Source: a virus
IMG/VR virus record: IMGVR_UViG_3300008117_004657
Location: 8,978-72,977 of that record
DNA: 64,000 nt
Direction: 5' to 3' (one strand)
Position 1 is the first letter of the stretch. Each line of letters opens with the position of its first letter. Positions 9,123 through 36,347 of this stretch are shown piece after piece. The notes beneath the pieces were generated by a model. It had not been told where the DNA came from and did no database searches. It saw only the letters and a list, made by a program, of their open reading frames with translations. The position numbers and the translations under genes are program-made.

Positions 9123-9437
9123 CTAAACAGAAAAACTACTTCCGCAACCACAAGTTGTTTGTGCATTAGGATTTTCTATTGTAAAGGTATGGCCCATAAT
9201 ATCTTCTTTGAAATTCAAAGTTGCAGAACTTAAATATTGCATACTAAAAGAATCTACAAGAATAGAAAATCCATCAAGAGGAATTTCAAAATCATCTTCA
9301 GAAAGTTCTTCTTCAAAGTCGAATCCATATCTAAATCCAGAGCATCCTCCACCCTCAACGTAGACTCGCAAGTACTTATTTTCTTCATCTAAATATTGTT
9401 TAATTTCGTTGATCGCAGACTCGGTTACATTTAACAT
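9123..9437 (-). CDS. erpA: Iron-sulfur cluster insertion protein ErpA (HesB/IscA family)
   Basis: LRVYVEGGGCSGFRY and NPNAQTTCGCGSSF motifs. GGAGG Shine-Dalgarno. Confidence 0.92.
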   Translation of the reverse strand: MLNVTESAINEIKQYLDEENKYLRVYVEGGGCSGFRYGFDFEEELSEDDFEIPLDGFSILVDSFSMQYLSSATLNFKEDIMGHTFTIENPNAQTTCGCGSSFSV

Positions 9438-9471
9438 TAATACCTCCTATTAATACCTATATTTATTTTGC

Positions 9472-10597: not shown

Positions 10598-10627
10598 AAC
10601 AGATACGTTAAAATTTAAAATAAATTT

Positions 10628-11272: not shown

Positions 11273-11274
11273 AA

Positions 11275-15646: not shown

Positions 15647-15648
15647 AA

Positions 15649-18100: not shown

Positions 18101-18117
18101 TAATAATTAATTTATAC

Positions 18118-18975
18118 TTATGAATTATAAAAAATTAAACTTTGTGGAGCAAATAAAACTTTATTTCCAATTTTTGGTGATCCCCACATGCCATTAAATT
18201 CATTATTTTGATCGTCTACAGGTATAAAATTTAATTTACTTGTTAAAGAACTCAATACTTTAACCCTCTGTTTATAAACACTTTCAATATGAATTAAATC
18301 GATATTGGATAATTGACCCGTATGATACAATAATTTCATATCAAACCCTTTTACATCATCAAATTCAATATTATCATACAATTTATAAAGATCACCTTCT
18401 TTACTTAACCAAATTTTCTTTTCAACTAATTGATCAAATAATTCTCTATAATCATCCAGTGTAGCAAATAGATACTCATCATTATAGATAAAATTTTTGT
18501 AATAATCAAATAACGAATCACTCTTTTCAAATATAAAAAAAGCCGTTTCTTCTAATAAATCAAATTCTTTATTTTGTTGGTGTTTTTTACAATGATTATA
18601 TACAAAATTTAAAAAATTATCTTTAAGTTCTATATTTCTATCATTCCAAAGTTTTCTATGAAACATAGTTTTTGAACTAGCATTAAGTTGAAATGCAAAT
18701 TCGTTTAGTTCAAAAAAACCTTCCATACCTTTATGTACAATCATTTCAACAAACTCAACATCAAAATGAGGAATGTTAAAGTGTAAAGGATAATAAAATT
18801 TATTTTCATTATATTCTTTTGTTGTAGTATCTACTCTACGTTTAACTCTAAAATCTGGATAGCGTTCAAGTAATAACTTTTCTCTAGACAAACGAATGTT
18901 TCTCAAATAGTCACTTATTTGAGTATATTCTGAACCATTCAAATATTCTAAATTGTTTACATCATAAAGTTTCAT
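18118..18975 (-). CDS. Hypothetical protein
   Basis: 285-aa ORF overlapping the upstream radical SAM stop. No recognised motif. Confidence 0.6.
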   Translation of the reverse strand: MKLYDVNNLEYLNGSEYTQISDYLRNIRLSREKLLLERYPDFRVKRRVDTTTKEYNENKFYYPLHFNIPHFDVEFVEMIVHKGMEGFFELNEFAFQLNASSKTMFHRKLWNDRNIELKDNFLNFVYNHCKKHQQNKEFDLLEETAFFIFEKSDSLFDYYKNFIYNDEYLFATLDDYRELFDQLVEKKIWLSKEGDLYKLYDNIEFDDVKGFDMKLLYHTGQLSNIDLIHIESVYKQRVKVLSSLTSKLNFIPVDDQNNEFNGMWGSPKIGNKVLFAPQSLIFYNS

Positions 18976-19897
18976 TTAATTCAACTTCAAAGCTAATTAT
19001 GTTAAATTGACATTTTTTTTGTTGGCATTTTATAACTTTACCATTTAATAAATTTTTAGAAGGATCAAGAAAAATATTTCCTATTGGTTTTTGTTCATTT
19101 TCAAAACAACACATAGTAACATCTCCATTTCTATCTACCTCATAAGCTCGAACATTACAGTTTTTACCAGTAAATAATAATTTAGTTTCTTTATACATTT
19201 CATACTTACCTTTATTGTAAGGTAAAATAGAACCATCGATTTTATATATTACATCAAATTTATTTAAATATTTTTCAAATTTAGAATTCATATTAACTAA
19301 TTGATTAATAGTTTCTAGAAGATTACTGTTATCTAGAACCAGAGGTTGCAATTTCATATTTTTTAAAGAATCAAATACTTCCTCAATATAATCTATATCA
19401 TTTAAATAATCGTTATCGGTAAAAAAGAATAAAGAAGAATATTTAAAATTATCATCAACCCATTTTACATTATTTTTAAATTGAACTTTATTTAAATTTT
19501 CAGTATGTAAAGTGCATGTTATTTTTACTTTATCTCCAAACTTTTTTAATAAATTTAGTCTTTTTTTAAAAAAAGTTGGTTTATGATCGGCATGAGTTAT
19601 GATTGAAAATTTATGATCAGGATGTGCATTAGTGTACAAATAATTTATTATTTCTTCAAAATTTTTATGTAAAAGAGGTTCTCCTCCTATCAATTCGATA
19701 ATAATTTTTTTATTGTTCATAGACATTATTTTTTCAAGTCCTCTGAGAACACCACTAATATCATTATTATAACGAACACCATTGGTGTCCGCAACATTGT
19801 AACAGTATGAACAACTCTTATCGCACAAAGTAAATAATTCAAATTCTACTAGAACATGATCTCCTATAAATTCATTATGTGTTTTTATATGTTTCAT
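18962..19897 (-). CDS. Radical SAM protein with short C-terminal Cys cluster (twitch-like)
   Basis: CDKSCSYC, GGEPLLH and C-terminal C…CC…CQQKKC. Confidence 0.9.
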   Translation of the reverse strand: MKHIKTHNEFIGDHVLVEFELFTLCDKSCSYCYNVADTNGVRYNNDISGVLRGLEKIMSMNNKKIIIELIGGEPLLHKNFEEIINYLYTNAHPDHKFSIITHADHKPTFFKKRLNLLKKFGDKVKITCTLHTENLNKVQFKNNVKWVDDNFKYSSLFFFTDNDYLNDIDYIEEVFDSLKNMKLQPLVLDNSNLLETINQLVNMNSKFEKYLNKFDVIYKIDGSILPYNKGKYEMYKETKLLFTGKNCNVRAYEVDRNGDVTMCCFENEQKPIGNIFLDPSKNLLNGKVIKCQQKKCQFNIISFEVELNETL

Positions 19898-19908
19898 TTT
19901 GAAAAGTA

Positions 19909-20724
19909 TTATGACAAAGATTTTGCCTCTATACTTCGTTGAACAAATCTCATCAATTCATTGTAATATTGATCATCAGTCATTTCTCGACCAGTAATTT
20001 TAAAACTTTGTACTCCAACTTGTTTTAACTTTTTCATGGCATTAGGCATCAGATCCATACACTCGTATTTACTGTCTATATCTGGGTTAAATTTTGGCAA
20101 CCAACATTCTTCTATTTCTCGACTATAAGGTCTGCCTGCGGTATTTTCATCAGCGATAGCTTTAAAGTGTGCATCATAGTGTTTACATCCATAAACACAA
20201 GTATCATTTAACATAACTTCCCATTTAGTTCTATCCAATTCGATAGTTCTAGGGTCAAATACATGCTCAAATCTAGGAACTATCCAATCATAATTTTTTT
20301 CGAGAACTTTAAAAAACTGAATATCTTCATCCTGTAATGGAATATTCAGTTGTCCCATTCCAGTTATACTATAAATTAATTCATAATCTGGATAATTTGA
20401 ACGAACATATTTTCTCAGATCATCATTAACTATTATTAGTGCATTACCTTTTCGATGAAATTTTTCTAATAAATGATTACCAACTTCATCATTCAAATCT
20501 ATCGTATGATTACTTAATGTTAAAGCTATACTTATACCTTTACTATAATAAAAATTCATTAGATTTTCATTATAGTAAACATCTCTGTTAATTCTACCAC
20601 CATTCCATTTACATTTATTTACTCCATCATATACTAATATTTTTGTATTGTCTACAATTCTATTAGAAATAAATTTTATTATAGGAATGGTTTTACTGAA
20701 AGCACCAGCTATTAGGTATCTCAT
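19909..20724 (-). CDS. Peptidase U32-like (Fe-S) protein
   Basis: WNGGR, EVMLNDTCVYGC…EC…EC and GVQSFKITGR, which matches the U32 SxKIxGR signature. Confidence 0.6.
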   Translation of the reverse strand: MRYLIAGAFSKTIPIIKFISNRIVDNTKILVYDGVNKCKWNGGRINRDVYYNENLMNFYYSKGISIALTLSNHTIDLNDEVGNHLLEKFHRKGNALIIVNDDLRKYVRSNYPDYELIYSITGMGQLNIPLQDEDIQFFKVLEKNYDWIVPRFEHVFDPRTIELDRTKWEVMLNDTCVYGCKHYDAHFKAIADENTAGRPYSREIEECWLPKFNPDIDSKYECMDLMPNAMKKLKQVGVQSFKITGREMTDDQYYNELMRFVQRSIEAKSLS

Positions 20725-20732
20725 ATTCTATT

Positions 20733-21491
20733 CTACATTAAAAAACATTTAGGTTTTGGGCAAACGCCATCGGTTTTTATTCTATAACAACAGTTATATA
20801 AATCTAAGTTTGGCGCATAGAGAAAATATTTATCTTTATACAAACAAGGTTTCCCAAAAGTATTAAAGTTTGAATCTAACCACAATTCACTGCGTTGACG
20901 ACCAAACCTATCGATATCCTCAAAATTAATTATCTTTTTATAAATCGAATTGTTTTTCAATGATTGATATTGTGAAAGTAAAGTATCACTATAACCATCT
21001 CCAAAGTCGGTAACTGGAGTCAAAAATAAATTGTCATGTGAAAAAGATTTTTTTATAGCAAAATAATAATCTATAGCTTCTTTTCCTGTGTACATAACAT
21101 CTATGATTTTAATATTGACTTCAGTTTCTTTTAATCCGTCAACTATATCTTTTATTGATGTTTCTGTTGGATGAATACTAATATTAACTTTAAAAGGTTC
21201 TTTTATTTGTTCGATTATTTTTCGACTGTAATTACTAAAGTTTGTTTGTATAACAAAAGGTATACTAAATTCATTAAAAGTTTTTATTATAAATTCTATT
21301 TTAGGATGAACAAATGGTTCCCCACCGAACACAAAAATCTCTACATTAGGATATTTTTCTCCTAAAGTTTTTATAAAACTTTTTATTTTTTCTTCATCCA
21401 ATTCTGGTCTTATACTGGGGTCCAAATTCGTACAATATACGCATTTATAATTACACTTAAGTGTAATTTCCCATTCAACAATTTTATTCAT
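20733..21491 (-). CDS. Radical SAM protein (short, twitch-like C-terminus)
   Basis: CNYKCVYC, GGEPFVHP, QTN, SIHPTE and C…CC…CPKPKC. Confidence 0.9.
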   Translation of the reverse strand: MNKIVEWEITLKCNYKCVYCTNLDPSIRPELDEEKIKSFIKTLGEKYPNVEIFVFGGEPFVHPKIEFIIKTFNEFSIPFVIQTNFSNYSRKIIEQIKEPFKVNISIHPTETSIKDIVDGLKETEVNIKIIDVMYTGKEAIDYYFAIKKSFSHDNLFLTPVTDFGDGYSDTLLSQYQSLKNNSIYKKIINFEDIDRFGRQRSELWLDSNFNTFGKPCLYKDKYFLYAPNLDLYNCCYRIKTDGVCPKPKCFLM

Positions 21492-22386
21492 TTTTTATTT
21501 TTAATTGTTTTAAAAGACCATCACAATTACAAGCTTTATGTGGACAAATCATAGGAATAGTTTTCGTAATATTTTTAAAAAAATCTCTATTACTTAAAAG
21601 ATTCACATTATCAGTTTTAGGCATACAAAATTTTACTACGTTGCCTTTAACATCAATTTCATAATTATTATTGTAACAACTCCATCCCTTGAAGTTTGTC
21701 ATCTTATCTCTAAAGATAATATAGTCATTAAAAAAATCGTCATCATATTTGAGTTCTTTTTCATAAGACTCTAAAAAAGAAAAATATTCCCAAAAATCTT
21801 TTCTATAATTAAACAATTTTGTAATACTGTTGCCGTATAAAAAATGTGGATGCACTTTTAAATTAGGTATTTTTTCTAAAGTTTCAAACATGTTTTTTAT
21901 TTTTGGCCAAAGTTTTTTATCATGATGTAACATTACATTAACTTTACACTTATAACCTCTATTCAACATGTGATTTATATTATTTAAAAATCTATTTTCG
22001 TCAGTACAATCAGCTGGGTGATAACTAAACAAAAATGCCAGTCTATCATAATCTGGGTGAGTTGTCAAATCTTTTTCAGCATTAGTAACAACATATACCC
22101 AATTAAATTTTTCCATTTTACTAATTGAATCTAAAATATAATAGTAATGTGGACCTAGAGTTGGTTCACCACCTAATAATCCAAGATTAAAATTTAGACT
22201 GCTTCGATTTAGAGCGTCCAAAACTGCATCTATTACTGTTTTGCTCGATAACTTACCCCATTCTTTACCATATTCATTTCTAGCGTAACAATAAGAACAT
22301 TTAAGTTGACAGATAGTTAAACTGTCCCAATGAATATTAATGTGATCTGGATCTTGATCTTTATGATGTTGTATTTTATACTTCAT
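21484..22386 (-). CDS. Radical SAM protein (short, twitch-like C-terminus)
   Basis: CQLKCSYC, GGEPTL, VTN, SYHP and FKGWSC…C…CPHKACNC. Confidence 0.9.
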   Translation of the reverse strand: MKYKIQHHKDQDPDHINIHWDSLTICQLKCSYCYARNEYGKEWGKLSSKTVIDAVLDALNRSSLNFNLGLLGGEPTLGPHYYYILDSISKMEKFNWVYVVTNAEKDLTTHPDYDRLAFLFSYHPADCTDENRFLNNINHMLNRGYKCKVNVMLHHDKKLWPKIKNMFETLEKIPNLKVHPHFLYGNSITKLFNYRKDFWEYFSFLESYEKELKYDDDFFNDYIIFRDKMTNFKGWSCYNNNYEIDVKGNVVKFCMPKTDNVNLLSNRDFFKNITKTIPMICPHKACNCDGLLKQLKIKNE

Positions 22387-23047
22387 ATTTTTTTAAAAAA
22401 TCTAAAGACGAGGTTATGTTTATATCTTTTTTTGTGTCTGGAAAAGATATATTATCATTCCCATCTTTTGTCTGATAAAAAAACACTTTACCAGTAGTTC
22501 TAAATGATTTAGAGTTACCTGAAGCGTGATAAACTAATCTGATATCATTATGTATATTGTTGTCTTTACCAAATAAAAAATCACCTATAACTTCTTTATT
22601 AAATATAAATTGTCCTAATTGTAGATGTTCAAGATTCAATTTATTTAAAAAATCAATTTTGTTGTTAATATTTTCGTCTTTAAACATATTTACTATTTCT
22701 AATAAATTGTCAGGTTTGTAAGTTGGATAGTAATTTCCTGCTATTATATCAGAATCAAATTCTTGATTAAAAAAATCATTTCTCAAATAATCATCATCTT
22801 CCAAAAAATAGATATATTTACCTTTTGATTGTAAAAATAAAAATTCGTATATACTTGATAAGTTATCAAATTTTTTATAAAAATATTTGACATTAGGATT
22901 TAAAATTTCTTCAATATCACAACTATCATTATTTACAATAATTTCTGTTTGGGGTGTTATTTGAGATAAAACCGATTTTATACATCTATCGAATAAAGTG
23001 GGTCTTTTGTGGGTTAATAATAAAATAGAAAGTTCAACATTTAACAT
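22376..23047 (-). CDS. Glycosyltransferase family 2 (GT-A) protein
   Basis: SILLLTHKRP…CIKSVLSQ…EIIVNND…SKGKYIYFLEDDD. Confidence 0.85.
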   Translation of the reverse strand: MLNVELSILLLTHKRPTLFDRCIKSVLSQITPQTEIIVNNDSCDIEEILNPNVKYFYKKFDNLSSIYEFLFLQSKGKYIYFLEDDDYLRNDFFNQEFDSDIIAGNYYPTYKPDNLLEIVNMFKDENINNKIDFLNKLNLEHLQLGQFIFNKEVIGDFLFGKDNNIHNDIRLVYHASGNSKSFRTTGKVFFYQTKDGNDNISFPDTKKDINITSSLDFLKKYEV

Positions 23048-24036
23048 ACAATTTTTATCTTCTCACCCAAGATAGGATTAAGATTGACCTTTCCTTTTAG
23101 TTCATTTTCTACACCATCACAAACATAAAAATATTTACATTTTAAACATTCTTCAGTTTTAAAACAACTATAAATTCTCAAACGATCTGCTTCAGAAAAA
23201 CACTGATCCACTTTTTGTTCATGTGTGTAAGAAATTTTAGTATTTAAAGTTTCATTATAAACTGCTTTATTCCAATCCTTCATATCATATATGTGATGAT
23301 AATGATTTTTTATATACTTTTCTTTTGATGGCATGAAGCAGTAAGGAAAATATCTAGCGTTTACTTCAACAAAATCTTTTAATTGATCAATATAATCAGA
23401 TACATGTGAACAAATAATTTCATAATTTATAGGTTGAAAATCTTTATTGTCTCTCCAATAATTTAAAGCTATAAAATTTACCTGTGAAGGGCTTAAAGAC
23501 TTTATAAATGAGGTATCTATTTTATCAAAGTTTTCATGATATATTGTTGTGTTTAACCTAACTTCGATATTTAATTTGTGTGAGTTTTCGACAGCTTTAA
23601 TTAAATTATTAAAAGCTCCTTTTTTACCTACAATTTTGTCATGAATATTTTCATCCGTACAATGCAAACTAAAAAGTATTTCTCTTAATCCTAAATCATA
23701 ACTTTTTCTTATAAAATCTTCATCACTAAATTTTCCTCCATGACTAAGGCAACTGATTCTATCGAATTTATTTCGACAGTAATTTAATATATTAAACCAG
23801 TTTGGTTCAACGCTACTTTCACCACCACTTAGATCGATTTCTCTTATGCCATAATCAAGTAAATAATCTATTCTTTTGTATATTTTTTCAAGTTCATCTC
23901 TTTCAGTCAAACTATTTTTATAGTAACAAAATTCACATTTATAATTACAAAGTTTACCTGTGTCCAATTTAGCCCTACTATTAATAGGTCTATTATAATC
24001 AACAGTAACTTTATTAACACTTAATTTGTTCATCAA
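23041..24036 (-). CDS. Radical SAM protein with C-terminal CxxC…C motif
   Basis: CNYKCEFC, SGGE, HDKIVGKKGAF, FPYC and CLKCKYFYVCDG. The layout resembles HxsC-like enzymes. Confidence 0.88.
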   Translation of the reverse strand: MMNKLSVNKVTVDYNRPINSRAKLDTGKLCNYKCEFCYYKNSLTERDELEKIYKRIDYLLDYGIREIDLSGGESSVEPNWFNILNYCRNKFDRISCLSHGGKFSDEDFIRKSYDLGLREILFSLHCTDENIHDKIVGKKGAFNNLIKAVENSHKLNIEVRLNTTIYHENFDKIDTSFIKSLSPSQVNFIALNYWRDNKDFQPINYEIICSHVSDYIDQLKDFVEVNARYFPYCFMPSKEKYIKNHYHHIYDMKDWNKAVYNETLNTKISYTHEQKVDQCFSEADRLRIYSCFKTEECLKCKYFYVCDGVENELKGKVNLNPILGEKIKIVC

Positions 24037-24892
24037 TGTACTTTATTAAAAGGTCATCTTTTGTTAGGGACGTGTTTTGAATACCATCTTTTTTCCTAAC
24101 TTCCAGTGCCTTATCATAATAATCTACATCATAAATAATTTCTTTATCATAATACATACACTCCAAAATAAATCTACTAGAACAATCTTTTTTACCTGGC
24201 AGTTTGGTATAAACATATGTAGAAAACTTGTTCCACATATCAGGCACAGGAACTTTATATGTATTAAAATTTTGGTATAATTCTGGTTTATTCGTAAAAA
24301 TTATACTATCTTTAATTGAATATTTATTGATGACTTCAGTTAAATCTTCTTGTGGTAAGAATCGACTAACATCAGTTAAATAAAACATGGAAGAGTTTTC
24401 AATTTTTCCATCTATAGTTTTGAATTTAGAATATAAAATTTTCTTTTTATAATCTATAACATTTAGTCCTTCTGGTATATCATCATATATCTCAAAATCT
24501 TGAAATAGATGGCTTGAAAATTTTTTATTTGAATAATAACTGAAATCTTTCTCATGACATCTTAAAAGAAAAAAGTTGTCACAATAAATTTCAGAATTAT
24601 TAAACTTGGAATATCCGTCAACTATTAATAAATTTTTCGTTAATAATAGTTTTGGATAAGGATGATAGACTAAATTTTCAATGGTTAAATCATGGTATTT
24701 CGATTTTAAAGCTATATTGAATTCTTCAATAGTCGTACCATCAGACAATAATATACAAGGATTTAAATTTGTCCAATTTTTTATAGCCCAATAGTATTCA
24801 ATCATTTCAAATAAATGGCCACAAATACCAAATTTAAAGTTATATGAAGTGGTTATTACCAAATCATAACTTCTCAAATTAATTAAAGACAC
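24014..24892 (-). CDS. Hypothetical protein, possibly GT-B glycosyltransferase-like
   Basis: 292 aa, GTG start. C-terminal DCSSRFILECMYYDKEII loosely resembles the GT-B donor-binding E…EA helix. Confidence 0.4.
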   Translation of the reverse strand: MSLINLRSYDLVITTSYNFKFGICGHLFEMIEYYWAIKNWTNLNPCILLSDGTTIEEFNIALKSKYHDLTIENLVYHPYPKLLLTKNLLIVDGYSKFNNSEIYCDNFFLLRCHEKDFSYYSNKKFSSHLFQDFEIYDDIPEGLNVIDYKKKILYSKFKTIDGKIENSSMFYLTDVSRFLPQEDLTEVINKYSIKDSIIFTNKPELYQNFNTYKVPVPDMWNKFSTYVYTKLPGKKDCSSRFILECMYYDKEIIYDVDYYDKALEVRKKDGIQNTSLTKDDLLIKYIDEQIKC

Positions 24893-24898
24893 TTAAAA

Positions 24899-26002
24899 TT
24901 ATTTCAAAATAATTTGATCTATACTAAGTGGATTGTATCCTAGATACTCAAAAAAGTTTTTTGGAACTTGATTTACAACATCTTGTTTTAAATTGTTGTC
25001 TAAAATATTTTTAACATATTCAGATTTTAGTACATCAAAAAATAAATTTAAATTTTGATTCAAGTCAAAATTTGAAAAAATTTCTTGAAAATTGTCGATA
25101 GAGAAATTTTCTATAGATGAAGATTCGCATTTAAATAATTCAAATTCGTTTATAATACTATTATAATTTGATAATTGATTTCTCAAAAAAATTTCTTTGT
25201 CGTCAAGTAAAAATTTTTCGTTTTTTAAATAATCTTCATATTTAATATTGATTACATTTGGTAAAGATTTTACTAATACCATATTAAAGATAGAAAAAAT
25301 AAAATTTTTAAACTTATTATTTTTTTTAATATAATCTTCTTCATACCTTATTGCATCAAAATTATAATCTAAATTATTTATGAAAGAGCAAACACTAGGA
25401 TTTCTTATAATATTTAAAACTCTAACATTTTCTTCTCCTAGTTCTTCTTTAACTTTTTGTATAAAAGATGGTGAAAATATTCCTGTCCATATATTATATG
25501 AATTTTTTTCTTTAAAAGAATTTAAGATATTCTGATACTCTAACGCATTGGATATTAAAATTTTTTTAATATCTTCATTAGAATAAATATCTTTATACCT
25601 AGAGTTTGATTGTAGATTTGTTATTTCATCTTCCATTAAAACAAAAGATTCAAGATTGTAAAAAAAACTATCAAGATTGGTAGTTATCCAAGAAACTTCA
25701 ATATGGTTTTCATTAAAAATTTTATCTGTTAGTTCAATATTAAATTCTTCTATCCTTTGTATTAAAGAATAATTTTTTTGTTTTAATTCATCATCTTCAA
25801 CATTCAGTAAACCATAATTTATTTTTCCTAAAGATTCATTATTACAATATACATTTTTTTGTTCAGAATCAAAAATTATAAAATCATCGTTTCTATATTT
25901 TACGGTATATTCATCAAATTCCCAAACTTTTTCGGCGTCAAGAATACTTCTAGATATGTATTTTAGATTTACAGTTTTAGGACCATTTATTAAGGTTATC
26001 AA
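24899..26002 (-). CDS. Hypothetical protein with sulfotransferase-like motifs
   Basis: VLNIIRNP and INIKYED match sulfotransferase 3'-PB and downstream motifs; ends YLGY. No clear 5'-PSB loop. Confidence 0.5.
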   Translation of the reverse strand: MITLINGPKTVNLKYISRSILDAEKVWEFDEYTVKYRNDDFIIFDSEQKNVYCNNESLGKINYGLLNVEDDELKQKNYSLIQRIEEFNIELTDKIFNENHIEVSWITTNLDSFFYNLESFVLMEDEITNLQSNSRYKDIYSNEDIKKILISNALEYQNILNSFKEKNSYNIWTGIFSPSFIQKVKEELGEENVRVLNIIRNPSVCSFINNLDYNFDAIRYEEDYIKKNNKFKNFIFSIFNMVLVKSLPNVINIKYEDYLKNEKFLLDDKEIFLRNQLSNYNSIINEFELFKCESSSIENFSIDNFQEIFSNFDLNQNLNLFFDVLKSEYVKNILDNNLKQDVVNQVPKNFFEYLGYNPLSIDQIILK

Positions 26003-26004
26003 AA

Positions 26005-26424
26005 TTATCTCCTTAAGTAAGACTCAATAATTTCATTAACACTTTTCTCATCATTTAAATCTGGTAAAACTTTTAATTTATCAATTATATTATAAAATTC
26101 GTCTTTTTTTTCTTGTAATTGTTTAATTGAATCCATAAGGTTGATATATTTTTCCAACTTATTAATAAGTTCAACATCGCCTGTTTCTATAATTTTGATA
26201 TAAACTTCTTCTCTAAGTTCTTCGGTTATGATGTATCCCTTTGAAGCCAGTTCATTGTTAATAGTCATAAAACTGACGAAATCCAATAATTTAAACGTCA
26301 AAAGTTCATCACCAAAAATTCCTCTAGCTTTTGTTTTACATGCTAGAGCAGCTTTACCCGCATAAGTATTCGCGTCTATACCTTCAATTTCAACTCGTTT
26401 TTCTTCCATAAAATTTATCTCCAC
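26005..26424 (-). CDS. Hypothetical protein in the radical SAM cluster
   Basis: 139-aa helical ORF directly downstream of the Cys-repeat gene. Confidence 0.65.
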   Translation of the reverse strand: MEINFMEEKRVEIEGIDANTYAGKAALACKTKARGIFGDELLTFKLLDFVSFMTINNELASKGYIITEELREEVYIKIIETGDVELINKLEKYINLMDSIKQLQEKKDEFYNIIDKLKVLPDLNDEKSVNEIIESYLRR

Positions 26425-26433
26425 TATTAATAA

Positions 26434-27360
26434 TTATTTAATCTCAAAAGGAAGTTCAGAATAATTAACCATATAAAAACCATTTTTGGTCATATAAACA
26501 GCATTAGAATATTTTGTTTTTAGAAGTTCTTGGGCCATAACACCGACAAAAGTCTCATTACTCCAAATATAAGAAAAACTGTAAACATTAATTCCAAAAA
26601 TATTCTTCAAATATTTAATATTCCTTTTCAATCGTCTGTCACTATAATTACAATTGCATGTGCAAGAATAATTGCAGTTACATGTACAATAATTACAGTT
26701 ACATGTACAATAATTACAGTTACATAAACATACTGCGCCAGCATCTTTTACTTTTTTAATTAAAGCATTAATGTCTGTCGCACTTATTCTAGTTGATAGT
26801 TGTGCGTTATTAGTGGTAGATATACCGGCAAATCCAGTAACAAAACCTGCTACCGAAATTGCAGGACCTCGGTCTACTTGTGGATTAGTAGTATTTGGTC
26901 CACCCCAGAGTTCAACACCACCAAAAGCTACAAATTGAGTGCCGTTAGGAAAAATTCGTTGCGTTAATTGAGAACCCGAACTTACAACACTTTCTCCTCC
27001 GGATGACGATGTAGTTATGAGACCAAATGTCCTAGCTCCCGTTCTCTCTATCGAGGCTTTTAAATTATTTATTTGGGACGATGTTATGGAAGTGCCGGAA
27101 CTGACAGTTGATCCTGACGGTGCAGAAAGTCCTCGCCTAGTACATTCAGACGCATAAGCGGTTCTAATAGCATTTATTGATGCAGCCCCAATTAACGATC
27201 CTGCTGTAACATCAGTCAAAGAATAAGTTGTAGCAACTGCAGCGCCATTATAAACGTTTGCTTTTACTATGTAGGTTCCACTAGCATCGTTGTCAGGGTT
27301 GTAACCCTTTGCATGACCAGAGGAAGCAGGAGGTCTTTTTTTGGAAGATGAATACGGCAT
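26434..27360 (-). CDS. Tail-fibre-like protein with (CxCNCNY)4 tract and C-terminal Peptidase S74 intramolecular chaperone; candidate radical SAM substrate
   Basis: Gly/Ser/Thr-rich body with three I-x-[AS]-x-x-I-N motifs. Then CLCNCNYCTCNCNYCTCNCNYSCTCNCNY, then SDRRLKRNI…GINVYSFSY…GVMAQEL…GFYMVNYSEL. Confidence 0.85.
   Translation of the reverse strand: MPYSSSKKRPPASSGHAKGYNPDNDASGTYIVKANVYNGAAVATTYSLTDVTAGSLIGAASINAIRTAYASECTRRGLSAPSGSTVSSGTSITSSQINNLKASIERTGARTFGLITTSSSGGESVVSSGSQLTQRIFPNGTQFVAFGGVELWGGPNTTNPQVDRGPAISVAGFVTGFAGISTTNNAQLSTRISATDINALIKKVKDAGAVCLCNCNYCTCNCNYCTCNCNYSCTCNCNYSDRRLKRNIKYLKNIFGINVYSFSYIWSNETFVGVMAQELLKTKYSNAVYMTKNGFYMVNYSELPFEIK
26675..26725. repeat. Exact 21-bp tandem repeat (2.4 copies) within the Cys tract
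   Basis: cagttacatgtacaataatta at 26675-26695 and 26696-26716, partial copy at 26717-26725. Confidence 0.92.
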
Positions 27361-27361
27361 A

Positions 27362-27742
27362 TTAAATCTCTTTTGATAAGAAGTTTAAATTATCTTTAAC
27401 TTTATTTTCTTCTAAAAATTTTTCATAATCATCAACATCAACAGTAGATGATAAAAAGTCCATAGTTTCTTTATCGGGTTCTTTATCTGACAAAGAATCT
27501 TCTGAAGATTCTTTAATTATATACATCACCATTTCTTCTAAAGAAAAACCTAAAATGTTAGAAACAAGATTTATTTGATCGGAAATATCTAAAGTTCCTT
27601 TAAAGTCCTCTTTAGAAATAGTTTCCAGAACATTTATTGATAGACCTAATCCATCCAATAATACTCTACCCGCAACATTATCTTCTTCAGATATCTCACC
27701 CATAAGTCTAATTATTTCTTCTATTTTTTCAGTGGTTTTCAT
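27362..27742 (-). CDS. Hypothetical acidic protein in the radical SAM cluster
   Basis: 126 aa. ATGA overlap with the upstream radical SAM gene, and it stops 1 nt before the Cys-repeat gene. Confidence 0.65.
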   Translation of the reverse strand: MKTTEKIEEIIRLMGEISEEDNVAGRVLLDGLGLSINVLETISKEDFKGTLDISDQINLVSNILGFSLEEMVMYIIKESSEDSLSDKEPDKETMDFLSSTVDVDDYEKFLEENKVKDNLNFLSKEI

Positions 27743-28602
27743 ACCAATTCCTTTTCTTTAAAATCTCGAAATTTTGGGGAACTCTCAATATTGAAATGTG
27801 TAGTAACATTTCCTTCGTCTGTAAAATACGTTTTAATTTCTTTTCTAATACTACATCCGTCACAAATATCACAAAATAGAGAACATACAGGCGACTGAAT
27901 CTCATTATTTATCCAACTTAACCTGAGATTTTCTTTCATAGAATCTAAAAGTTTTAAGTCTTTCTCACTCAAAGTATCCCAGGCGACAGAGGTTATAAGT
28001 CTCTCCGGCCTAAAAGTTTTGATTAGTTTAGTTATATCTTCGGAAGCTCGCCTTATATTCAATTTATGAATGGTATATCTTATTCGAAACCTGAAATTAT
28101 TTTCCAATAACTTCTTAAATATCTTTACCATAAATGGTGTTGATTCCATACCATTGTGAAAAACTCTGTCTTTATTACCAACTCCATCAAAACTCACATC
28201 TATAGATAATAACTTCTTCTTATAAAAAAAATTATTTTTAGTTACGTCTATGAAATCTTGGCTTAAATATTTAATACCATTTGTTGTCATATTAAAATGA
28301 ACATTCTTCTTTTTACTATAGGCATAGTCCATAGCAAAACAAACATTTTCCCATTCTAATGTTGGCTCTCCACCAAACAATACTATAAGAGTTTGCTGAC
28401 TCGGATCCTCACGTTCTAAAATTTTATCAATACTTTTTACAATATCTTCTTTACTTAAAATTTGCGGCGGTCTTCCTGGTAAATCTTCATAGCAATACGT
28501 GCAAGCTAAGTTGCATTTATTGGTAAAATATAATACATTTACACCAGATCCAGAAACTATTGGTTTATTAGGATCTTGTATGTAAAATTGTTCTACATTC
28601 AT
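27739..28602 (-). CDS. Radical SAM protein (anSME/peptide-maturase-like core, short Cys-rich C-terminus)
   Basis: CNLACTYC, LFGGEPTL, MTTNG, VSFDG and CSLFCDICDGC. Confidence 0.9.
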   Translation of the reverse strand: MNVEQFYIQDPNKPIVSGSGVNVLYFTNKCNLACTYCYEDLPGRPPQILSKEDIVKSIDKILEREDPSQQTLIVLFGGEPTLEWENVCFAMDYAYSKKKNVHFNMTTNGIKYLSQDFIDVTKNNFFYKKKLLSIDVSFDGVGNKDRVFHNGMESTPFMVKIFKKLLENNFRFRIRYTIHKLNIRRASEDITKLIKTFRPERLITSVAWDTLSEKDLKLLDSMKENLRLSWINNEIQSPVCSLFCDICDGCSIRKEIKTYFTDEGNVTTHFNIESSPKFRDFKEKELV

Positions 28603-28898
28603 TGTATTATCATTTTATGAGAATTTTTATATCTATTTTCTTTTGGACGTTTTTTAGCTTCTTCAATTATGTGTCGCATGTTGTCCAAAAATTTGATATA
28701 ATCTAATTTGTAATCAAATAAATGTCCGGCTTCATTATATCCAACATATTTACTATCAACTTTAGCTTTACCTTTTCTAGCTTCTTCAATCTGCACTGAT
28801 AACTCATCAACAGGAATTACTTTGTTTGATGCATGTTCAACAGGTTGCATCTCAACCTTTATTGGTATAGATAATAAACTTTTAAAATTTTTTTTCAT
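28599..28898 (-). CDS. Hypothetical protein in the radical SAM cluster
   Basis: 99 aa, translationally coupled on both sides. Confidence 0.6.
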   Translation of the reverse strand: MKKNFKSLLSIPIKVEMQPVEHASNKVIPVDELSVQIEEARKGKAKVDSKYVGYNEAGHLFDYKLDYIKFLDNMRHIIEEAKKRPKENRYKNSHKMIIQ

Positions 28899-29746
28899 TA
28901 AATTTCCTTAGGATACATCATAAGTCCACCTTCACAAATTTCTTTCGGACAAATAACTTTTTTTGTAATATCTTTTAAAGATAACGGCATAATTTCATTA
29001 GTGCAAACATTTTTAACCAAATTATCCAATTCTATTTGAAAAGATTCTGGCACACATTTATAATCTCTAAAAGAATTTTTTTTCTCATATAATAATTTTA
29101 AATCTGTTGTTCTTTCTTCCGAACCATCATCATATAAAACATTTATATCTATCATATCTTCAGCATTAGAAGCTTCTGTAAAAAAATCTTGATCTAAGTT
29201 ATTTGTGTAATATGGAGTATCAACTAAAAAATTTAATTTAAATTTAATATTATTAGATTTACAGTTATCAATAATATTTAAAATATAGTTTTTATACTCT
29301 GGCATCATACTTATATGAACTTCACAATTTAGATTTTTACACTTTTTTAAAAAATCCTCTTTGTGATATTCTGGATGAAAAGATGCATAATACTTAACTT
29401 TTGAAAAACTTTTTATACTTTTATAAAAAGTTTCCGATCTAGTCAAGTTGGTAAAAAAATAAATTTTTACCAAATTTTTAATTTCATTTAATCCTTCCAG
29501 TATTTCTTCAATATTTGGATGTAATGTTGGTTCACCACCAGTTAAACAAATCTCAAAAGGTTTAGAAATAGTTTTTAATCTACTTATTATTAACTTGTAA
29601 CTTTGTGCAATCTGAGTCGTATCATTGTAATCATAACTTAAATTTTCCTTTACATTACAGTATGAACACTTCAAATTACACCAATTCAATATATGCCAGT
29701 TAATTCTAAGAATTTTATCTTGACTGGTGCAAGAAATAATTTTCAT
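28898..29746 (-). CDS. Radical SAM protein (short, twitch-like C-terminus)
   Basis: CNLKCSYC, TGGEPTLHP, FTN, SFHPE and FRDYKC…C…CPKEIC. Confidence 0.9.
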   Translation of the reverse strand: MKIISCTSQDKILRINWHILNWCNLKCSYCNVKENLSYDYNDTTQIAQSYKLIISRLKTISKPFEICLTGGEPTLHPNIEEILEGLNEIKNLVKIYFFTNLTRSETFYKSIKSFSKVKYYASFHPEYHKEDFLKKCKNLNCEVHISMMPEYKNYILNIIDNCKSNNIKFKLNFLVDTPYYTNNLDQDFFTEASNAEDMIDINVLYDDGSEERTTDLKLLYEKKNSFRDYKCVPESFQIELDNLVKNVCTNEIMPLSLKDITKKVICPKEICEGGLMMYPKEI

Positions 29747-29747
29747 A

Positions 29748-30872
29748 TTAATTCCTACACTCTACGCCTTCATTTTCAACACCAACATTTTCAATATAAT
29801 GTAATACTAAATCTTGAAAAACTGGAACATCCTTACACTCATCAACAACTCTTAAACCCTGTTCATAATATATGTGAAATAATTCACAAATACTATCCAA
29901 TGGTTTATTGTCATTCATAATTTGAGAATAAGTGCATCCAGTATTACATACTTGTTTTAAATCGCAAGGTTCACATTTATCAAAACTTTTAGGATTAAAT
30001 ATATCTTGATAATATTTAAAATTATATTGTTCGTCCATCTTCATAATTTTTTTAGATGCAAATCTGGCGCAAGGATAAAATTCACCAGAACTCATCAAAA
30101 CTCCACCATTGGTTCCTGCAAAACATCCAAATGATCTTTTTCCTTTTACTAATCCATATAGTGTGTCCAAAATAGCTAGTCTGAGAAAGCCAACTGAACA
30201 AGCTTTACCTGATTTTAGTTTTTCTATCCAAAAATCCGCCAATCTTTCACATTCATATCTAAACTGTTTGATATCTTCTACAGTCCAAACATCATCTCGA
30301 ACTATACTAAAATCGGGATGATCTATACCCCAATCTAGTAAGAATTGGAAATTCTCCGTCATATCTTTGGTATTACCTGGCCATATCATAACTTTACAAC
30401 CGTTTGTTAAATCTTTTATGATTTCTTTCTTGTACTCATACATTGAAAGAATACCATCAAATAAATCTCCAGTTTCTGGATTAGTATTTTCTAAAAGTGG
30501 TAATAAAGGTCTAGTTTCATTTGAACTCATACCATCAAAAGACCAAGAAACACCGACACCATTTTCTTTTAAATAATGAGCTTTATTTTCATCAATCATC
30601 GTAAGATTTGTGATGATATTAATACCTTTACATTTCTTATCCGATTTCAAATAAGGAACGGCGTGAGTTATAAGATCCCAATTTAATAGTGGTTCACCAC
30701 CAAAAAAACTTACATGATAATCCCTATCTCCCGATCTTTGCATCAAGTTGGGCAAATCTTTCATACCTTGATCGAAAACCTCTTTCGTCATCCAAGTTGG
30801 CCTATTTGCTACATAACAATAAGGACAACCTAGATTACATTTTTCAGTAACACTTACCTCTAATGTAAACAT
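29748..30872 (-). CDS. Radical SAM/SPASM domain protein
   Basis: CNLGCPYC, FFGGEPLLN and SFDG. SPASM region GCFAG…GEFYPC…CEPCDLKQVCNTGC…C. Confidence 0.92.
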   Translation of the reverse strand: MFTLEVSVTEKCNLGCPYCYVANRPTWMTKEVFDQGMKDLPNLMQRSGDRDYHVSFFGGEPLLNWDLITHAVPYLKSDKKCKGINIITNLTMIDENKAHYLKENGVGVSWSFDGMSSNETRPLLPLLENTNPETGDLFDGILSMYEYKKEIIKDLTNGCKVMIWPGNTKDMTENFQFLLDWGIDHPDFSIVRDDVWTVEDIKQFRYECERLADFWIEKLKSGKACSVGFLRLAILDTLYGLVKGKRSFGCFAGTNGGVLMSSGEFYPCARFASKKIMKMDEQYNFKYYQDIFNPKSFDKCEPCDLKQVCNTGCTYSQIMNDNKPLDSICELFHIYYEQGLRVVDECKDVPVFQDLVLHYIENVGVENEGVECRN

Positions 30873-30882
30873 TCTTTTATCC

Positions 30883-31989
30883 TTAAACTGTGCATTGTTC
30901 AGCCTCGATTTTAATCGTAGGCTTTTTATAACTCTTTAGTGCTGTTCTTAGAGCATGATGTACTATCTCATTCGTTTTGAATACCTTACATACCTGCCAA
31001 TTAGCTGTATGATCACTCCATTTTTCTAAATAAGTTTCTTTTTCAGATTTCTCATAAGTCGCAGCATTACACTTCATACAAAACTGACTATCGCAACTCA
31101 TACAGTCTAGTGGTTGATTTTTCAATGCGTCTTTATACATCTGAGATTTTTCTTCAATCAACTGATCTAAATCTGGAACTTTAAAAATATTACCGAGTTT
31201 ATGTGAATGAGATTCTTTATACATGCATCCGTGACAAGGACTTAAATCCCCATTCAAGTCCACACTCACATAATTTATACCTGCAGCACATAGAGCTCTA
31301 GACTGTTGAAACCATCCAAATTTTTCAGGAGGTAATTTGTTATCATAAATGTGTTTAGCAATTTTTTTCAATCCATCCTTCAAAACTTCTAATCTAGGCA
31401 TGAATTCTTCTTCATTCAACTGACTGTATAAGTCTGGTGTTGGAAAATAATTATTATCCATTTCTATTACATCTAGAAATGCTTCATAAATTAAATGGAA
31501 ATTATCGGATGTCAAAACAGATTTCAATGAAACATTTAGCCCAGCTTGTTTAGCTGCAATATAGTTTGCTTTAACTAAGGCTGATGATGGAGTACCAGAC
31601 TTAGTTACTCTTGCGATATCATTTACTGGTTTTCCATCATATGAAACTTGTAACTTTAGTCTACCTGGAATTTCATTATGAATTCTAACCAAATCTTTTA
31701 AATATCTTTTTAAATATGTTCCATTTGTATAGAAGAAAAAAGAAAACCCAGGATCGTGTTTAAACTTCTCAATAACACCTTTACAAAAATCCCAATTAAC
31801 AAACGGTTCGCCACCCCAAAAATAAACATCCTTTTTAGGATCAGAAATTTTAGCCATAAATTCTTCAACATTATCTAATGTCAAAGAAGTATTTTCTTCA
31901 AACTCAGTAGATAGACCACACTCAAAACCTTCGGAACAATATGTGCAAGCTAAATTGCAAATACTTGTTACGTTTATATCTACTACCAT
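30883..31989 (-). CDS. Radical SAM/SPASM domain protein
   Basis: CNLACTYC, FWGGEP, YTNG and VSYDG. SPASM region CAAG…GDLSPCHGC…CMSCDSQFCMKC…C. AAGGAG Shine-Dalgarno. Confidence 0.92.
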   Translation of the reverse strand: MVVDINVTSICNLACTYCSEGFECGLSTEFEENTSLTLDNVEEFMAKISDPKKDVYFWGGEPFVNWDFCKGVIEKFKHDPGFSFFFYTNGTYLKRYLKDLVRIHNEIPGRLKLQVSYDGKPVNDIARVTKSGTPSSALVKANYIAAKQAGLNVSLKSVLTSDNFHLIYEAFLDVIEMDNNYFPTPDLYSQLNEEEFMPRLEVLKDGLKKIAKHIYDNKLPPEKFGWFQQSRALCAAGINYVSVDLNGDLSPCHGCMYKESHSHKLGNIFKVPDLDQLIEEKSQMYKDALKNQPLDCMSCDSQFCMKCNAATYEKSEKETYLEKWSDHTANWQVCKVFKTNEIVHHALRTALKSYKKPTIKIEAEQCTV

Positions 31990-32044
31990 TTTTTCTCCTT
32001 TTATTTTAAATCAAAGACGCACTAGTATATAGTAGTTGATAAAC

Positions 32045-32782
32045 TCAATCAACATTTCTGTAGTATTCGTTCAGTTCTAAAACTTTTTTAAGTAATTCTA
32101 CATCATAATTTTTCACCAAACACTCGGTATCTTTTGGTAAGCAAGGACCTCCAAATCCTCTTTTTCCGTCAGGTCCAGGAACTTTAAAATGATTGGATCC
32201 CATCCAAGGATGTTTAGAAAGTATTTCGATAGCTTCCTCATAGTTTACCTCCATCTTTTTAGCTACATCATACATTGAATTCATAAAAATAACTTTTGTT
32301 GCATAAAAAGAATTCATTGAGTATTTTATAAAAGAAGCAGTATTGATATCCGTTATGAATGTATTACTCATATCTACAGTAGAATACTTTCTATAAATTT
32401 CTAATGCTTGTTCAGATTTATTACCCGATAAAATCGTTAGAGGAGGATTTACAAAATCTTCCTTTGAAGTGGACCTTGATAAAAATTCTGGATTATATAC
32501 TACGTCATATTGTTTTAAATATTGTGGTAACACAGTTGATTTGACTATGACAACTCCTTTATAATTCATTCGTCGTATTTCATCAAGTACAGAAATCAAC
32601 AAAGAATAATTAGTGTTATCTGTGGGAGTAGGAACACAAACGAAGATAGCCTCAGGATTTAATAAACAAAGGCCTTTCACCGTTACGTGATTATATTTCG
32701 GATCACAAACAAAAACTTTAGTTTTGGAAAAGCCGTATTCAACGGCTTGTCCAACCATTCCATAACCAATAATTCCAATCAT
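32045..32782 (-). CDS. UDP-glucose/GDP-mannose dehydrogenase family protein (short, phage type)
   Basis: GYGMVG, VCVPTP, KSTV, YNPEFL and GFGGPCLPKD. Lacks the C-terminal UDP-binding domain. Confidence 0.88.
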   Translation of the reverse strand: MIGIIGYGMVGQAVEYGFSKTKVFVCDPKYNHVTVKGLCLLNPEAIFVCVPTPTDNTNYSLLISVLDEIRRMNYKGVVIVKSTVLPQYLKQYDVVYNPEFLSRSTSKEDFVNPPLTILSGNKSEQALEIYRKYSTVDMSNTFITDINTASFIKYSMNSFYATKVIFMNSMYDVAKKMEVNYEEAIEILSKHPWMGSNHFKVPGPDGKRGFGGPCLPKDTECLVKNYDVELLKKVLELNEYYRNVD

Positions 32783-32785
32783 AAT

Positions 32786-36097: not shown

Positions 36098-36106
36098 TTC
36101 TGATTA

Positions 36107-36346
36107 TTAATCCTTCTTATGAATCAGCGTCTGTAATAGAGATTTTATTTCATTCATATCATTAGACATTTCTTCAATTTTAGTTTTTAAGTTATTTATC
36201 TCGTCATCATTTCCGCTTATTTTTTTACCTAATTTTTTTCTAGCTTCATTCTGTTGCAAAATAGTTTTATTTACGGCCAATAGAGCACCATTTGTTTTAT
36301 TTTTAACAAATTGGCCGCCTTCGACCTTAAGTAAATTATTTTCCAT
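36107..36346 (-). CDS. Small coiled-coil hypothetical protein conserved in T4-like phages
   Basis: KVEG…TNGALL…EINNLK…EIKSLL. Typical follower of the DUF4815 gene. Confidence 0.7.
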   Translation of the reverse strand: MENNLLKVEGGQFVKNKTNGALLAVNKTILQQNEARKKLGKKISGNDDEINNLKTKIEEMSNDMNEIKSLLQTLIHKKD

Positions 36347-36347
36347 A

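Follow-up and report, generated by a model that had tools for sequence, protein, structure and literature searches.

Radical S-adenosylmethionine (rSAM) enzymes carrying a SPASM domain are known as thioether maturases of secreted peptides, and action on a whole protein was shown only recently, for the enzyme CrpC and its substrate CrpA (2026; PMC13692751). Here we describe an island of rSAM genes around a gene for a cysteine-repeat protein in a viral genome. The stretch analysed, referred to below as the window, comprises 64 kb of a 72,977-base IMG/VR viral record (IMGVR_UViG_3300008117_004657) that is estimated to be 43% complete. The island occupies 18962-31989 of the window and the cysteine-repeat protein, of 308 aa, is encoded at 26434-27360. 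The island consists of two cassettes, module 1 (26005-31989) and module 2 (18962-24892). On balance we favor an explanation in which enzymes of module 1 mature the Cys core of the protein and module 2 is a separate glycan cassette. If this is correct, viruses apply rSAM/SPASM chemistry to their own, probably structural, proteins, and this would be a new step in virion maturation.

The SCIFF maturase CteB joins Cys to Thr in the peptide CteA (thermocellin; structures 5WGG/5WHY). The phage enzymes share with CteB the rSAM core and a seven-Cys SPASM domain, and both systems have a Cys-rich substrate, but the phage enzymes align only from CteB residue 101 and are without its N-terminal domain, which we take to be a recognition element (RRE) for ribosomally made peptides that are modified after translation (RiPPs). 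CteA has ~45 residues, whereas the phage protein has 308, with heptads and a self-cleaving domain. In the PapB/PapA (freyrasin) system the spacing is Cys-X3-Asp. The phage core likewise has Asn or Asp at a fixed distance from Cys, but it differs in its C-x-x-N/D spacing, in its mostly Asn acceptor, in having three enzymes rather than one and in being viral. PapB joins Cys to Asp or Glu (PMC9413430).

Among published systems, that of CrpC and CrpA in Methanococcus voltae comes nearest (Dieter et al. 2026, PMC13692751). CrpC is a SPASM rSAM enzyme that forms ranthionine cross-links on CrpA. This Cys-rich repeat protein of 28.8 kDa has a repeated C-X-X-Q/D motif and an N-terminal leader-like part, and a helper-like protein, CrpB, is co-encoded (PMC13692751). 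As in the phage, a SPASM rSAM gene stands beside a Cys-rich repeat protein, not a peptide, with a C-x-x-acceptor motif. CrpC is a TIGR04463 member in which an RRE is predicted, whereas the phage enzymes lack an RRE; TIGR04463 is absent among the best 25 listed of the 66 and 53 NCBIfam families that match. The CrpA repeat has 17 residues and the phage repeat seven, and the archaeal system is cellular, with one enzyme, no S74 domain and no fibre context.

The C-terminal part of the phage protein resembles S74 tailspikes and fibres (endosialidase, 3GW6/3GUD; MyRF, 7DC3) in its PF13884 score, its SDxRLK start and weak fold matches. In the known S74 cases the part upstream of the domain is a beta-helical stalk or a receptor-binding tip, whereas here it is a 29-residue Cys ladder, and many relatives have only a stub of the S74 domain or are S74-less. 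Many rSAM genes are also found in the CP220-like Firehammervirus phages of Campylobacter and in pelagimyophage clusters, and the heptad protein itself recurs in Firehammervirus. The first-pass annotation of this DNA had mentioned rSAM clusters of unknown function in CP220-like phages. The 11-12 rSAM genes of CP220 and CPt10 were called 'highly unusual' and a host-metabolic role was guessed (PMC2853527). In pelagimyophages, rSAM 'gene cassettes' occur with glycosyltransferases in a hypervariable host-recognition region (PMC7029224). Unlike the island genes, those of the Campylobacter phages are scattered rather than in one operon, and the papers propose host-metabolic roles or none. The word 'cysteine' does not occur in PMC2853527, in the available text of PMC7029224 or in PMC3322345, and in the literature searched neither the heptad protein nor its pairing with rSAM enzymes is described.

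The cysteine-heptad protein and its neighboring enzymes

The protein encoded by 26434-27360 comprises an N-terminal domain, a helix, a Cys core and an S74 domain (Table 1). The core, noted first as (CxCNCNY)4, consists of one CLCNCNY and three CTCNCNY heptads, with one S before the last, followed by S74. Apart from L/T at position 2, all differences among the four heptads are synonymous (TGT/TGC and AAC/AAT codons), so it is the peptide rather than a DNA repeat that is conserved. Each heptad has two C-x-x-N/D spacings (C1 to N4 and C3 to N6). The S74 domain scores 29.6 bits against PF13884 (cut-off 22) over aa 240-288, with SDRRLK at 240-245. Fold matches of this part to 7DC3, 3GW6 and 3GUD are weak (Z 3.2-3.5), and its PHROG matches are virion and tail-fibre families.

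We identified 560 proteins that match the Cys-heptad protein at E<=0.001. The best 120 all have 3-12 heptads (four in 102 cases) and SDxRLK directly after the core. Over the 506 heptads of these 120 proteins the consensus is C-T-C-N-C-N-Y, with N467/D35/Q3 at position 4, N488/D13 at position 6 and Y499/F6 at position 7. R75, R76, the whole core and SD.RLK (S240, D241, R243, L244, K245) are invariant in 79 aligned sequences. Judged by these sequences, the heptad motif is not a product of chance, and the family appears to be large and close to virus-restricted. In genomes of 185,579 prokaryote species, a degenerate DNA pattern for two consecutive heptads hit just 2 contigs, both from metagenome-assembled genomes (MAGs); an rSAM open reading frame (ORF) lies directly upstream in one and not in the other. 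Four complete genomes of cultured relatives hold no heptad. The family is phrog_26958, listed with unknown function, database names for its members are 'hypothetical' or 'chaperone of endosialidase', and NCBIfam holds no model for it. A tblastn search of phage records with the Cys protein returned the S74 part alone, in one Microcystis phage, and the alignment profile compared with PDB sequences gave nothing below E 0.27. In the monomer model, residues 40-110, helix 194-209 and S74 are predicted with confidence, and the pLDDT (predicted local distance difference test) is below 50 in the core. Complex prediction with three copies of residues 186-308 scored 0.01 against a mark of 0.42, which is evidence neither way.

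Genes were called as rSAM when they scored above the Pfam cut-off of 29.5 bits for PF04055 and had CxxxCxxC near the N-terminus. Eight minus-strand ORFs of the island qualify, at 32.8-61 bits and with the motif within the first 37 residues (starting at residues 11-30), and gene junctions in 18962-31989 range from a 23-nt overlap up to an 11-nt gap. The first-pass annotation had described eight co-oriented genes of this type around 26434-27360, including two full SPASM enzymes and four short paralogues, and this description stands; the genes are tightly packed. A ninth rSAM gene, with a B12-binding domain, lies on the plus strand at 11275-12804 and passes by both measures.

Three of the module 1 enzymes, A, B and C (Table 1), are central here. 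The seven-Cys SPASM pattern, tested as C..G....C, gap, CxxCx5CxxxC, gap, C, is complete in A (C234..C334) and in B. TIGR04085 is passed by A (31.5 bits; cut-off 27), for which PF13186 gives 21.1 bits (cut-off 21.5); Pfam returned no SPASM match for B despite its seven Cys. In 12 orthologues of B the cluster residues C12, C16 and C19 are invariant, as are SPASM residues C250, C268, C300, C303, C309, C313 and C329. Enzyme C has a C-terminal CxxxCxxCxxC (Cys 240/244/247/250). The best NCBIfam match of all three is PapB (NF047865), at 130.8 bits for B, 89.2 for C and 77.4 for A, far below the cut-off of 340, and they are not members. TIGR03974 (SCIFF, CteB) gives 87.1, 61.0 and 49.7 bits (cut-off 425) and TIGR03942 (anSME) 54.6, 42.7 and 41.6 bits (cut-off 349). 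Enzyme C had been labeled anSME-like, which is not the best label, its top match being PapB. The anSME substrate motif is C/S-x-P/A-x-R, and the core sequence CTCNCNY does not contain it. By sequence, the module 1 enzymes resemble the PapB, SCIFF and anSME families but are outside them. Among PDB entries the best match of the enzyme B profile is CteB (5WGG, E 7.4e-34, chain residues 101-449 aligned), which A matches at E 2.6e-11; the next solved relatives are 8VPO, anSME, ChlB and SuiB. CxxxCxxC starts at residues 11, 12 and 30 in the three enzymes. Because they begin at the cluster motif, there is no space for an N-terminal recognition domain (RRE) of the kind seen in SCIFF/CteB.

The association of these enzymes with the Cys core was examined in both directions. 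Among 35 viral loci that encode relatives of the Cys protein, 34 have an ORF with a C.C.C repeat. The PF04055 search was run on 28 of these records, the other seven being duplicates, and found 3-16 matches each in 25; the three without a match are fragments of 16-23 kb. The four complete genomes of cultured relatives, used as a control, hold 1, 2, 0 and 0 matches. In the reverse direction, a profile of the 12 orthologues of enzyme B retrieved 76 loci, 61 of them unique. At >=38% identity a heptad ORF lies 160-3506 bp away on the same strand at 33 of 42 unique orthologues, and at 26 of the 30 that have >=5 kb on both flanks. The four full-flank negatives are L044 (L-numbers label the related loci that were fetched), which has the S74 part alone in frame, and three Campylobacter phages. 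The co-occurrence of Cys repeat and rSAM genes expected at first pass is thus confirmed for 27739-31989, forward as well as in reverse.

Strict heptads are present at only 2 of the 19 unique orthologues below 38% identity. Variant Cys cores occupy the heptad position at many distant loci, where a general scan found them (L090, L092, L094, L097, L098, L100, L101, L103-L109, L112) or they were spotted by eye (L091, L151). Such cores, CICNSDCxCNxVCxCHNDCxCNY for example, run into SDxRLK or a stop and lie beside orthologues of 25-31% identity. The variants retain CxCN...D/N, so the C-x-x-N/D spacing persists. As these variants lie beside distant orthologues, enzyme and core diversify together. The variant core gene of L151 (L151:7000-8000) ends in a SDERLKRNIRSI stub, with the rest of an S74-like domain in another frame; this gene is split or frameshifted.

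Gene order on the same strand is kept down to 25-40% identity, as enzyme A-like SPASM, enzyme B-like SPASM, enzyme C-like rSAM, Cys gene(s) and the 26005-like partner gene. The internal order of the three upstream rSAM genes differs in distant loci, and in almost every related locus the Cys-core gene has an orthologue of A upstream. From this conservation of neighborhood we consider it probable that the SPASM rSAM set and the Cys-core protein are enzymes and substrate. The Cys-core proteins of related viral loci are 125-534 aa long. Tandem Cys genes occur in four loci: three in L007, four in L020 and two each in L013 and L021. In L007 only the middle gene has a full S74 domain and its neighbors end in a 12-residue SDxxLK stub, an arrangement that might reflect a shared chaperone or a hetero-oligomer.

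Cultured carriers are found in Firehammervirus. Fifteen records, including CPt10 (L016), CP21 (L017) and CP220, encode a 534-aa heptad protein (CPT_0180 in CP220) with CxCDCNY heptads. It is annotated as hypothetical or as a lyase, and the latter annotation is surely wrong. An rSAM gene like that of enzyme A lies 2.2 kb downstream of the heptad gene in Campylobacter phages. CP220 also encodes (L085:17842-18210) a protein of 123 aa whose 27 Cys recur every three residues (CxNCxNC...), located ~7 kb downstream of the enzyme B orthologue. This protein may be a second kind of rSAM substrate.

Table 1. Positions in the window of the island genes, their parts and nearby features.
Feature	Position	Strand	Evidence or remark
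A-type Fe-S carrier (IscA/ErpA-like), island edge	9123..9437	-	PF01521 E 3.9e-20, 72.5 bits
Short rSAM, partial SPASM/twitch C-terminus	18962..19897	-	PF04055 32.8 bits
Weakly U32-like protein	19909..20724	-	PF01136 E 0.0067, 16.2 bits, below 22.4; 40-77% identity in related loci
Two short rSAMs, 4-Cys C-terminus	20733..22386 (20733-21491, 21484-22386)	-	PF04055 49.3 and 33.3 bits
Family-2 glycosyltransferase (GT2)	22376..23047	-	PF00535 30.7 bits vs 23.3
rSAM, HxsC-like as best sub-threshold match	23041..24036	-	PF04055 61 bits
phrog_24441 protein, possibly glycosyltransferase	24014..24892	-	PHROG E 1.4e-15
367-aa protein	24899..26002	-	No family; weakly conserved, 23-41%
Helical partner, 139 aa, phrog_25260	26005..26424	-	Always directly downstream of Cys-core gene
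Cys-heptad protein, 308 aa	26434..27360	-	N-terminal domain, helix 194-209, core aa 211-239, S74 aa 240-308
S74 intramolecular-chaperone (self-cleaving) domain	26437..26643	-	PF13884 E 8.8e-7; begins SDRRLK
Cys core, four heptads, 12 Cys	26644..26730	-	aa 211-239, read from sequence
126-aa acidic protein, unknown family	27362..27742	-	34-50% identity in close subgroup
rSAM enzyme C, 287 aa, PapB-like core	27739..28602	-	PF04055 49.4 bits
99-aa protein, unknown family	28599..28898	-	No Pfam/PHROG; 43-82% identity in 12 loci of close subgroup
Short rSAM, 4-Cys C-terminus	28898..29746	-	PF04055 45.6 bits
rSAM/SPASM enzyme B, 374 aa, CteB/PapB-like	29748..30872	-	PF04055 48.7 bits; CxxxCxxC at residue 12
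rSAM/SPASM enzyme A, 368 aa	30883..31989	-	PF04055 56 bits; CxxxCxxC at residue 11
UDP-glucose/GDP-mannose dehydrogenase-like (UGD)	32045..32782	-	PF00984 61.6, PF03721 41.2 bits; at head of block; syntenic in related loci
ATAAATA, possible T4-type late-promoter core	36193..36199	-	96 nt upstream of fibre-like gene 32786-36097 heading block

Module 2 and the sugar genes

A profile of the HxsC-like rSAM (23041-24036) retrieved 46 loci with a syntenic block that comprises the phrog_24441 protein, the HxsC-like rSAM, GT2, short rSAMs and the U32-like protein. A Cys core is present in 30 of these loci (21 heptad, 8 variant, plus L151), and the Cys-core gene is absent in 16. At least seven of the 16 (L125, L130, L133, L134, L140, L142 and L149, each with >=7 kb upstream) have neither the SPASM pair nor the partner gene. 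The companions of module 2 are UGD, enzymes of the short-chain dehydrogenase/reductase (SDR) type (epimerases), a split transketolase, a halogenase-like flavoprotein, PIG-L/polysaccharide deacetylases and a sulfotransferase. Going by this gene content, module 2 probably forms a separable glycan/sugar cassette with the sugar-nucleotide genes of 9472-18100 and 32045-32782. It may or may not act on the Cys protein.

This division changes what was proposed at first pass, namely that the rSAM array acts as a set of RiPP maturases on the Cys protein. Kinship with maturases holds for the enzymes of 27739-31989, which are nearest to CteB and PapB, and the module 2 genes travel with the glycan cassette. 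The proposal is kept for three or four of the eight enzymes. Because module 2 is without a Cys core in 16 of 46 loci, and in at least seven of those is without the SPASM pair and the partner as well, decoration of the Cys protein by all eight is unsupported.

The 23041-24036 enzyme had been described as HxsC-like. HxsC (TIGR03977) is indeed its best match, at 69.4 bits, far from the cut-off of 267.9, and no His-Xaa-Ser repeat protein was seen among the island ORFs. Its homologues are always paired with homologues of 24014-24892. The nearest named Atlas clusters of the phrog_24441 protein are GT1, GT4 and DUF2827 (score 0.90), which is a lead only. The short rSAMs 18962-19897, 20733-21491, 21484-22386 and 28898-29746 match each other by BLAST and have a 4-Cys C-terminus in common. 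PF13186 scores 21.7 bits (cut-off 21.5) on 18962-19897, as a partial match to profile positions 7-50 of 67. The module 1 member of this group, 28898-29746, matches 21484-22386 at E 8e-14 and shows 23-34% identity in most related loci and 84% in L025. It is a paralogue of the short rSAMs of module 2 and a variable insert within module 1.

Proposed maturation of the Cys core and its alternatives

Module 1 is best read as a protein-maturation cassette in which enzymes A, B and C would act on the C-terminal Cys core. The most likely reaction would form ranthionine-type thioether bridges from Cys sulfur to the side-chain carbon of the Asn or Asp three residues downstream, and the product would be a rigid, reduction-proof ladder. 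This assignment is made by analogy, because CrpA provides a precedent and C-x-x-N/D occurs twice per heptad and is kept in the variants. We give thioether chemistry on the core about an even chance. The S74 domain would then fold or trimerise the protein and cut itself off at SDRRLK, so that the ladder would form the very C-terminal end of a protein of fibre or spike type, with 26005-26424 as a dedicated partner. A place for the protein in the virion is slightly favored. The phage-borne Fe-S carrier (9123-9437) counts for maturation.

Several results weigh against this explanation. In the Campylobacter phages the orthologue of enzyme B is ~31 kb from the heptad gene, and on MAG contig L114 the heptad protein is without an rSAM motif in its 8 kb. 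(That protein, L114:3481-5985, has 835 aa and six heptads in mid-protein, on a contig binned to a Firmicute MAG with no CxxxCxxC ORF.) No RRE or leader-binding protein was found in module 1. The reaction type is an analogy because the NCBIfam scores (130.8, 89 and 77 bits) are far below 340, and CxC-rich tracts can bind metals too. For location in the virion, CPT_0180 is missing from the 11 gel bands listed in PMC2853527. The N-terminal domain had no clear match in a wide VIA-align fold search (best Z 5.1), and a search for long fused relatives (540-2000 aa) gave only ten among 30 candidates, none with a Pfam domain. A full S74 domain is present in only 11 of the 57 unique Cys-core genes of the fetched loci. 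Eighteen of the 57 end after a 12-residue SDxxLKxxxxY[MLFI] stub, 13 stop no more than 6 residues past the core, and the remaining 15 carry tails of other kinds. S74 is therefore optional, although the case for a fibre or spike draws mainly on it. Separate S74 ORFs were not found downstream of the stub-type or core-ending genes by a simple G[VIL][MILV]A[QE]E regular expression. The core genes that end in ...CNY(S) look, from their sequence, like a natural cleaved product, which fits cleavage at Ser that leaves the core C-terminal.

The number of enzymes may be informative as to how the core is modified. A gene like that of enzyme C is upstream of 27 of 39 unique heptad cores, which have three Cys per unit, and of none of the 16 variant cores, which have two; 14 of the 16 have the SPASM pair alone. 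That enzyme number tracks core type is suggestive at the level of gene content. The heptad loci L014, L015 and L084, with only two upstream rSAMs, count against one enzyme per Cys, and the correlation is confounded by kinship within the groups. A bolder reading holds that phages of several lineages, among them T4-like phages of fresh and marine waters and the Firehammerviruses of Campylobacter, harden the host-binding end of a fibre, with one enzyme per Cys position, thioether-knotted heptads, a tip exposed by S74 (36 Cys per trimer) and glycan decoration. We regard this as rather unlikely in its entirety; if true, it would describe a protease- and redox-proof adhesin and a class of virion maturation undescribed so far.

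Tailoring of a sugar, cofactor or nucleotide for glycan or DNA modification is an alternative role for most or all of the rSAMs, with the Cys protein as a mere neighboring fibre gene. Module 2 agrees with this, since it accompanies GT2, a GT-like gene, UGD, SDR epimerases, transketolase, deacetylase and sulfotransferase genes and occurs without a Cys core in 16 of 46 loci. So do the published accounts, which place rSAM cassettes and glycosyltransferases in the host-recognition region (PMC7029224) and guess at a metabolic role for the rSAMs of CP220 and CPt10 (PMC2853527). Module 2 probably has such a tailoring role. Module 1 probably does not: its SPASM pair is tied to the Cys core in both directions and has thioether maturases of peptides, rather than enzymes of sugars or nucleotides, as its closest characterised relatives. 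As an account of the whole island, tailoring is unlikely. A still less probable alternative is that the Cys core binds metal or Fe-S, for instance as a thiolate ladder in a trimeric needle, with rSAMs that serve another pathway or use the tract only as a cluster scaffold. The tip of the T4 long tail fibre, with its His-x-His iron sites, offers an analogue. With CxC spacing, every other Cys of a strand points to the same side, the island edge encodes an A-type Fe-S carrier, and the predicted disorder of the core in the monomer model is what might be expected if ligand or partner chains were needed. The authors of the CrpA work suspect that CrpA binds metals (PMC13692751). A metal site leaves unexplained why two to three CteB/PapB-like SPASM enzymes stand beside the core gene from 25% to 97% identity, and why the conservation of Asn/Asp at +3 and of Tyr at position 7 equals that of Cys. 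Metal binding and maturation are not mutually exclusive.

The least probable of these alternatives, and a very doubtful one, is a released RiPP-like product directed against the host or competitors, for which the N-terminal domain would be a leader and S74 a self-removing follower. The leader-like plus core architecture, the tandem paralogous core genes (L007, L020, L013, L021), the many relatives without S74 and the absence of CPT_0180 from the CP220 gel-band list would all fit such a product. The proteins are not short peptides but have 125-534 aa, the cassette is in a region of fibre and baseplate genes, and the PHROG matches of S74 are virion and tail-fibre families. Family scans revealed no transporter or leader peptidase among the island genes, as had been noted from the start.

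Maturation of the Cys core by module 1, if it occurs, would account for the rSAM arrays that have been on record since 2010 for CP220-like Campylobacter phages, and for those in the host-recognition clusters of pelagimyophages. Its reach would be wide, given 560 homologues and dozens of viral contigs with 25-97% enzyme identity. As compact cross-linking enzymes that lack an RRE and recognise a unit of seven residues, the maturases would be potential tools, and the cultured CP220-type phages make the idea directly testable.

The virus, expression signals and other genes

The baseplate genes of the window are T4-type (gp6/gp8-like wedge and tube cap in PHROG) and come after the island. The gp6-like protein is ~43% identical to those of the Pelagibacter phages HTVC008M and Mosig, the Methylophilales phage Melnitz and cyanomyoviruses. 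DNA nearly identical to the window was found in lake-water and freshwater metagenome runs of many studies, and contigs of run X10, which is not marked as a possible source, have 0-1 differences over most of 18000-37000. Judging from the T4-type baseplate genes, the kinship of the gp6-like protein and the near-identical freshwater DNA, the virus is a freshwater T4-like phage. A megablast search of 50,697 phage records with the island gave no match. All sizeable ORFs in 12801-36097 are on the minus strand. The island had been placed between tail-fibre genes, and the long proteins that flank it (1103 and 1162 aa) are repeat-rich and fibre-like, but Pfam assigns neither to a family. Genes 5049-8537 and 32786-36097 share YANAAF/ANTA-type repeats and an 'IEVDRG..PN..F.WNE..D.W' motif, with no Pfam match.

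ATAAATA, possibly a T4-type late-promoter core, occurs in the window 19 times against 55 expected, and TATAAATA 2 times against 16 expected, with neither copy of the latter heading the island. Such strong depletion would fit a late-promoter core that is avoided elsewhere, if the motif is one. A sigma-70 scan of the window was at background level (128 found, 124 expected). RNA-library contigs without differences cover the Cys gene in three of three metatranscriptome runs, from three studies, and also neighboring genes; this evidence is weak, as the contigs may be DNA carry-over and there is no silent control stretch. Most of 18000-26000 is without RNA contig cover, which says nothing on expression. 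One contig from a DNA run joins 19019 to 29230, skipping 10.2 kb, with a shorter side of 25 letters, and was not used. The joint falls inside the paralogous rSAMs 18962-19897 and 28898-29746 and may come from a relative or be a repeat artefact.

The model of the partner protein 26005-26424 has five helices (pLDDT 90) and no match at E<=0.001 in the PDB or BFVD. A weak PHROG match to a 'transcriptional regulator' (E 0.0015) had hinted at a winged helix and hence at an RRE, an idea that was dropped because the model is confidently all-helical and without such a match. The proteins encoded by 27362-27742 and 28599-28898 have no PqqD or other Pfam match at E<=5. In addition to the Fe-S carrier, the island edge (9123-13445) encodes a polysaccharide deacetylase, a sulfotransferase-like protein, the B12-binding rSAM and a PIG-L deacetylase. 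Also present, at 15649-18100, is a flavin-dependent halogenase-like gene (PF04820, E 6e-63) between the halves of a split transketolase-like enzyme, and this trio is syntenic in L129 and L152.

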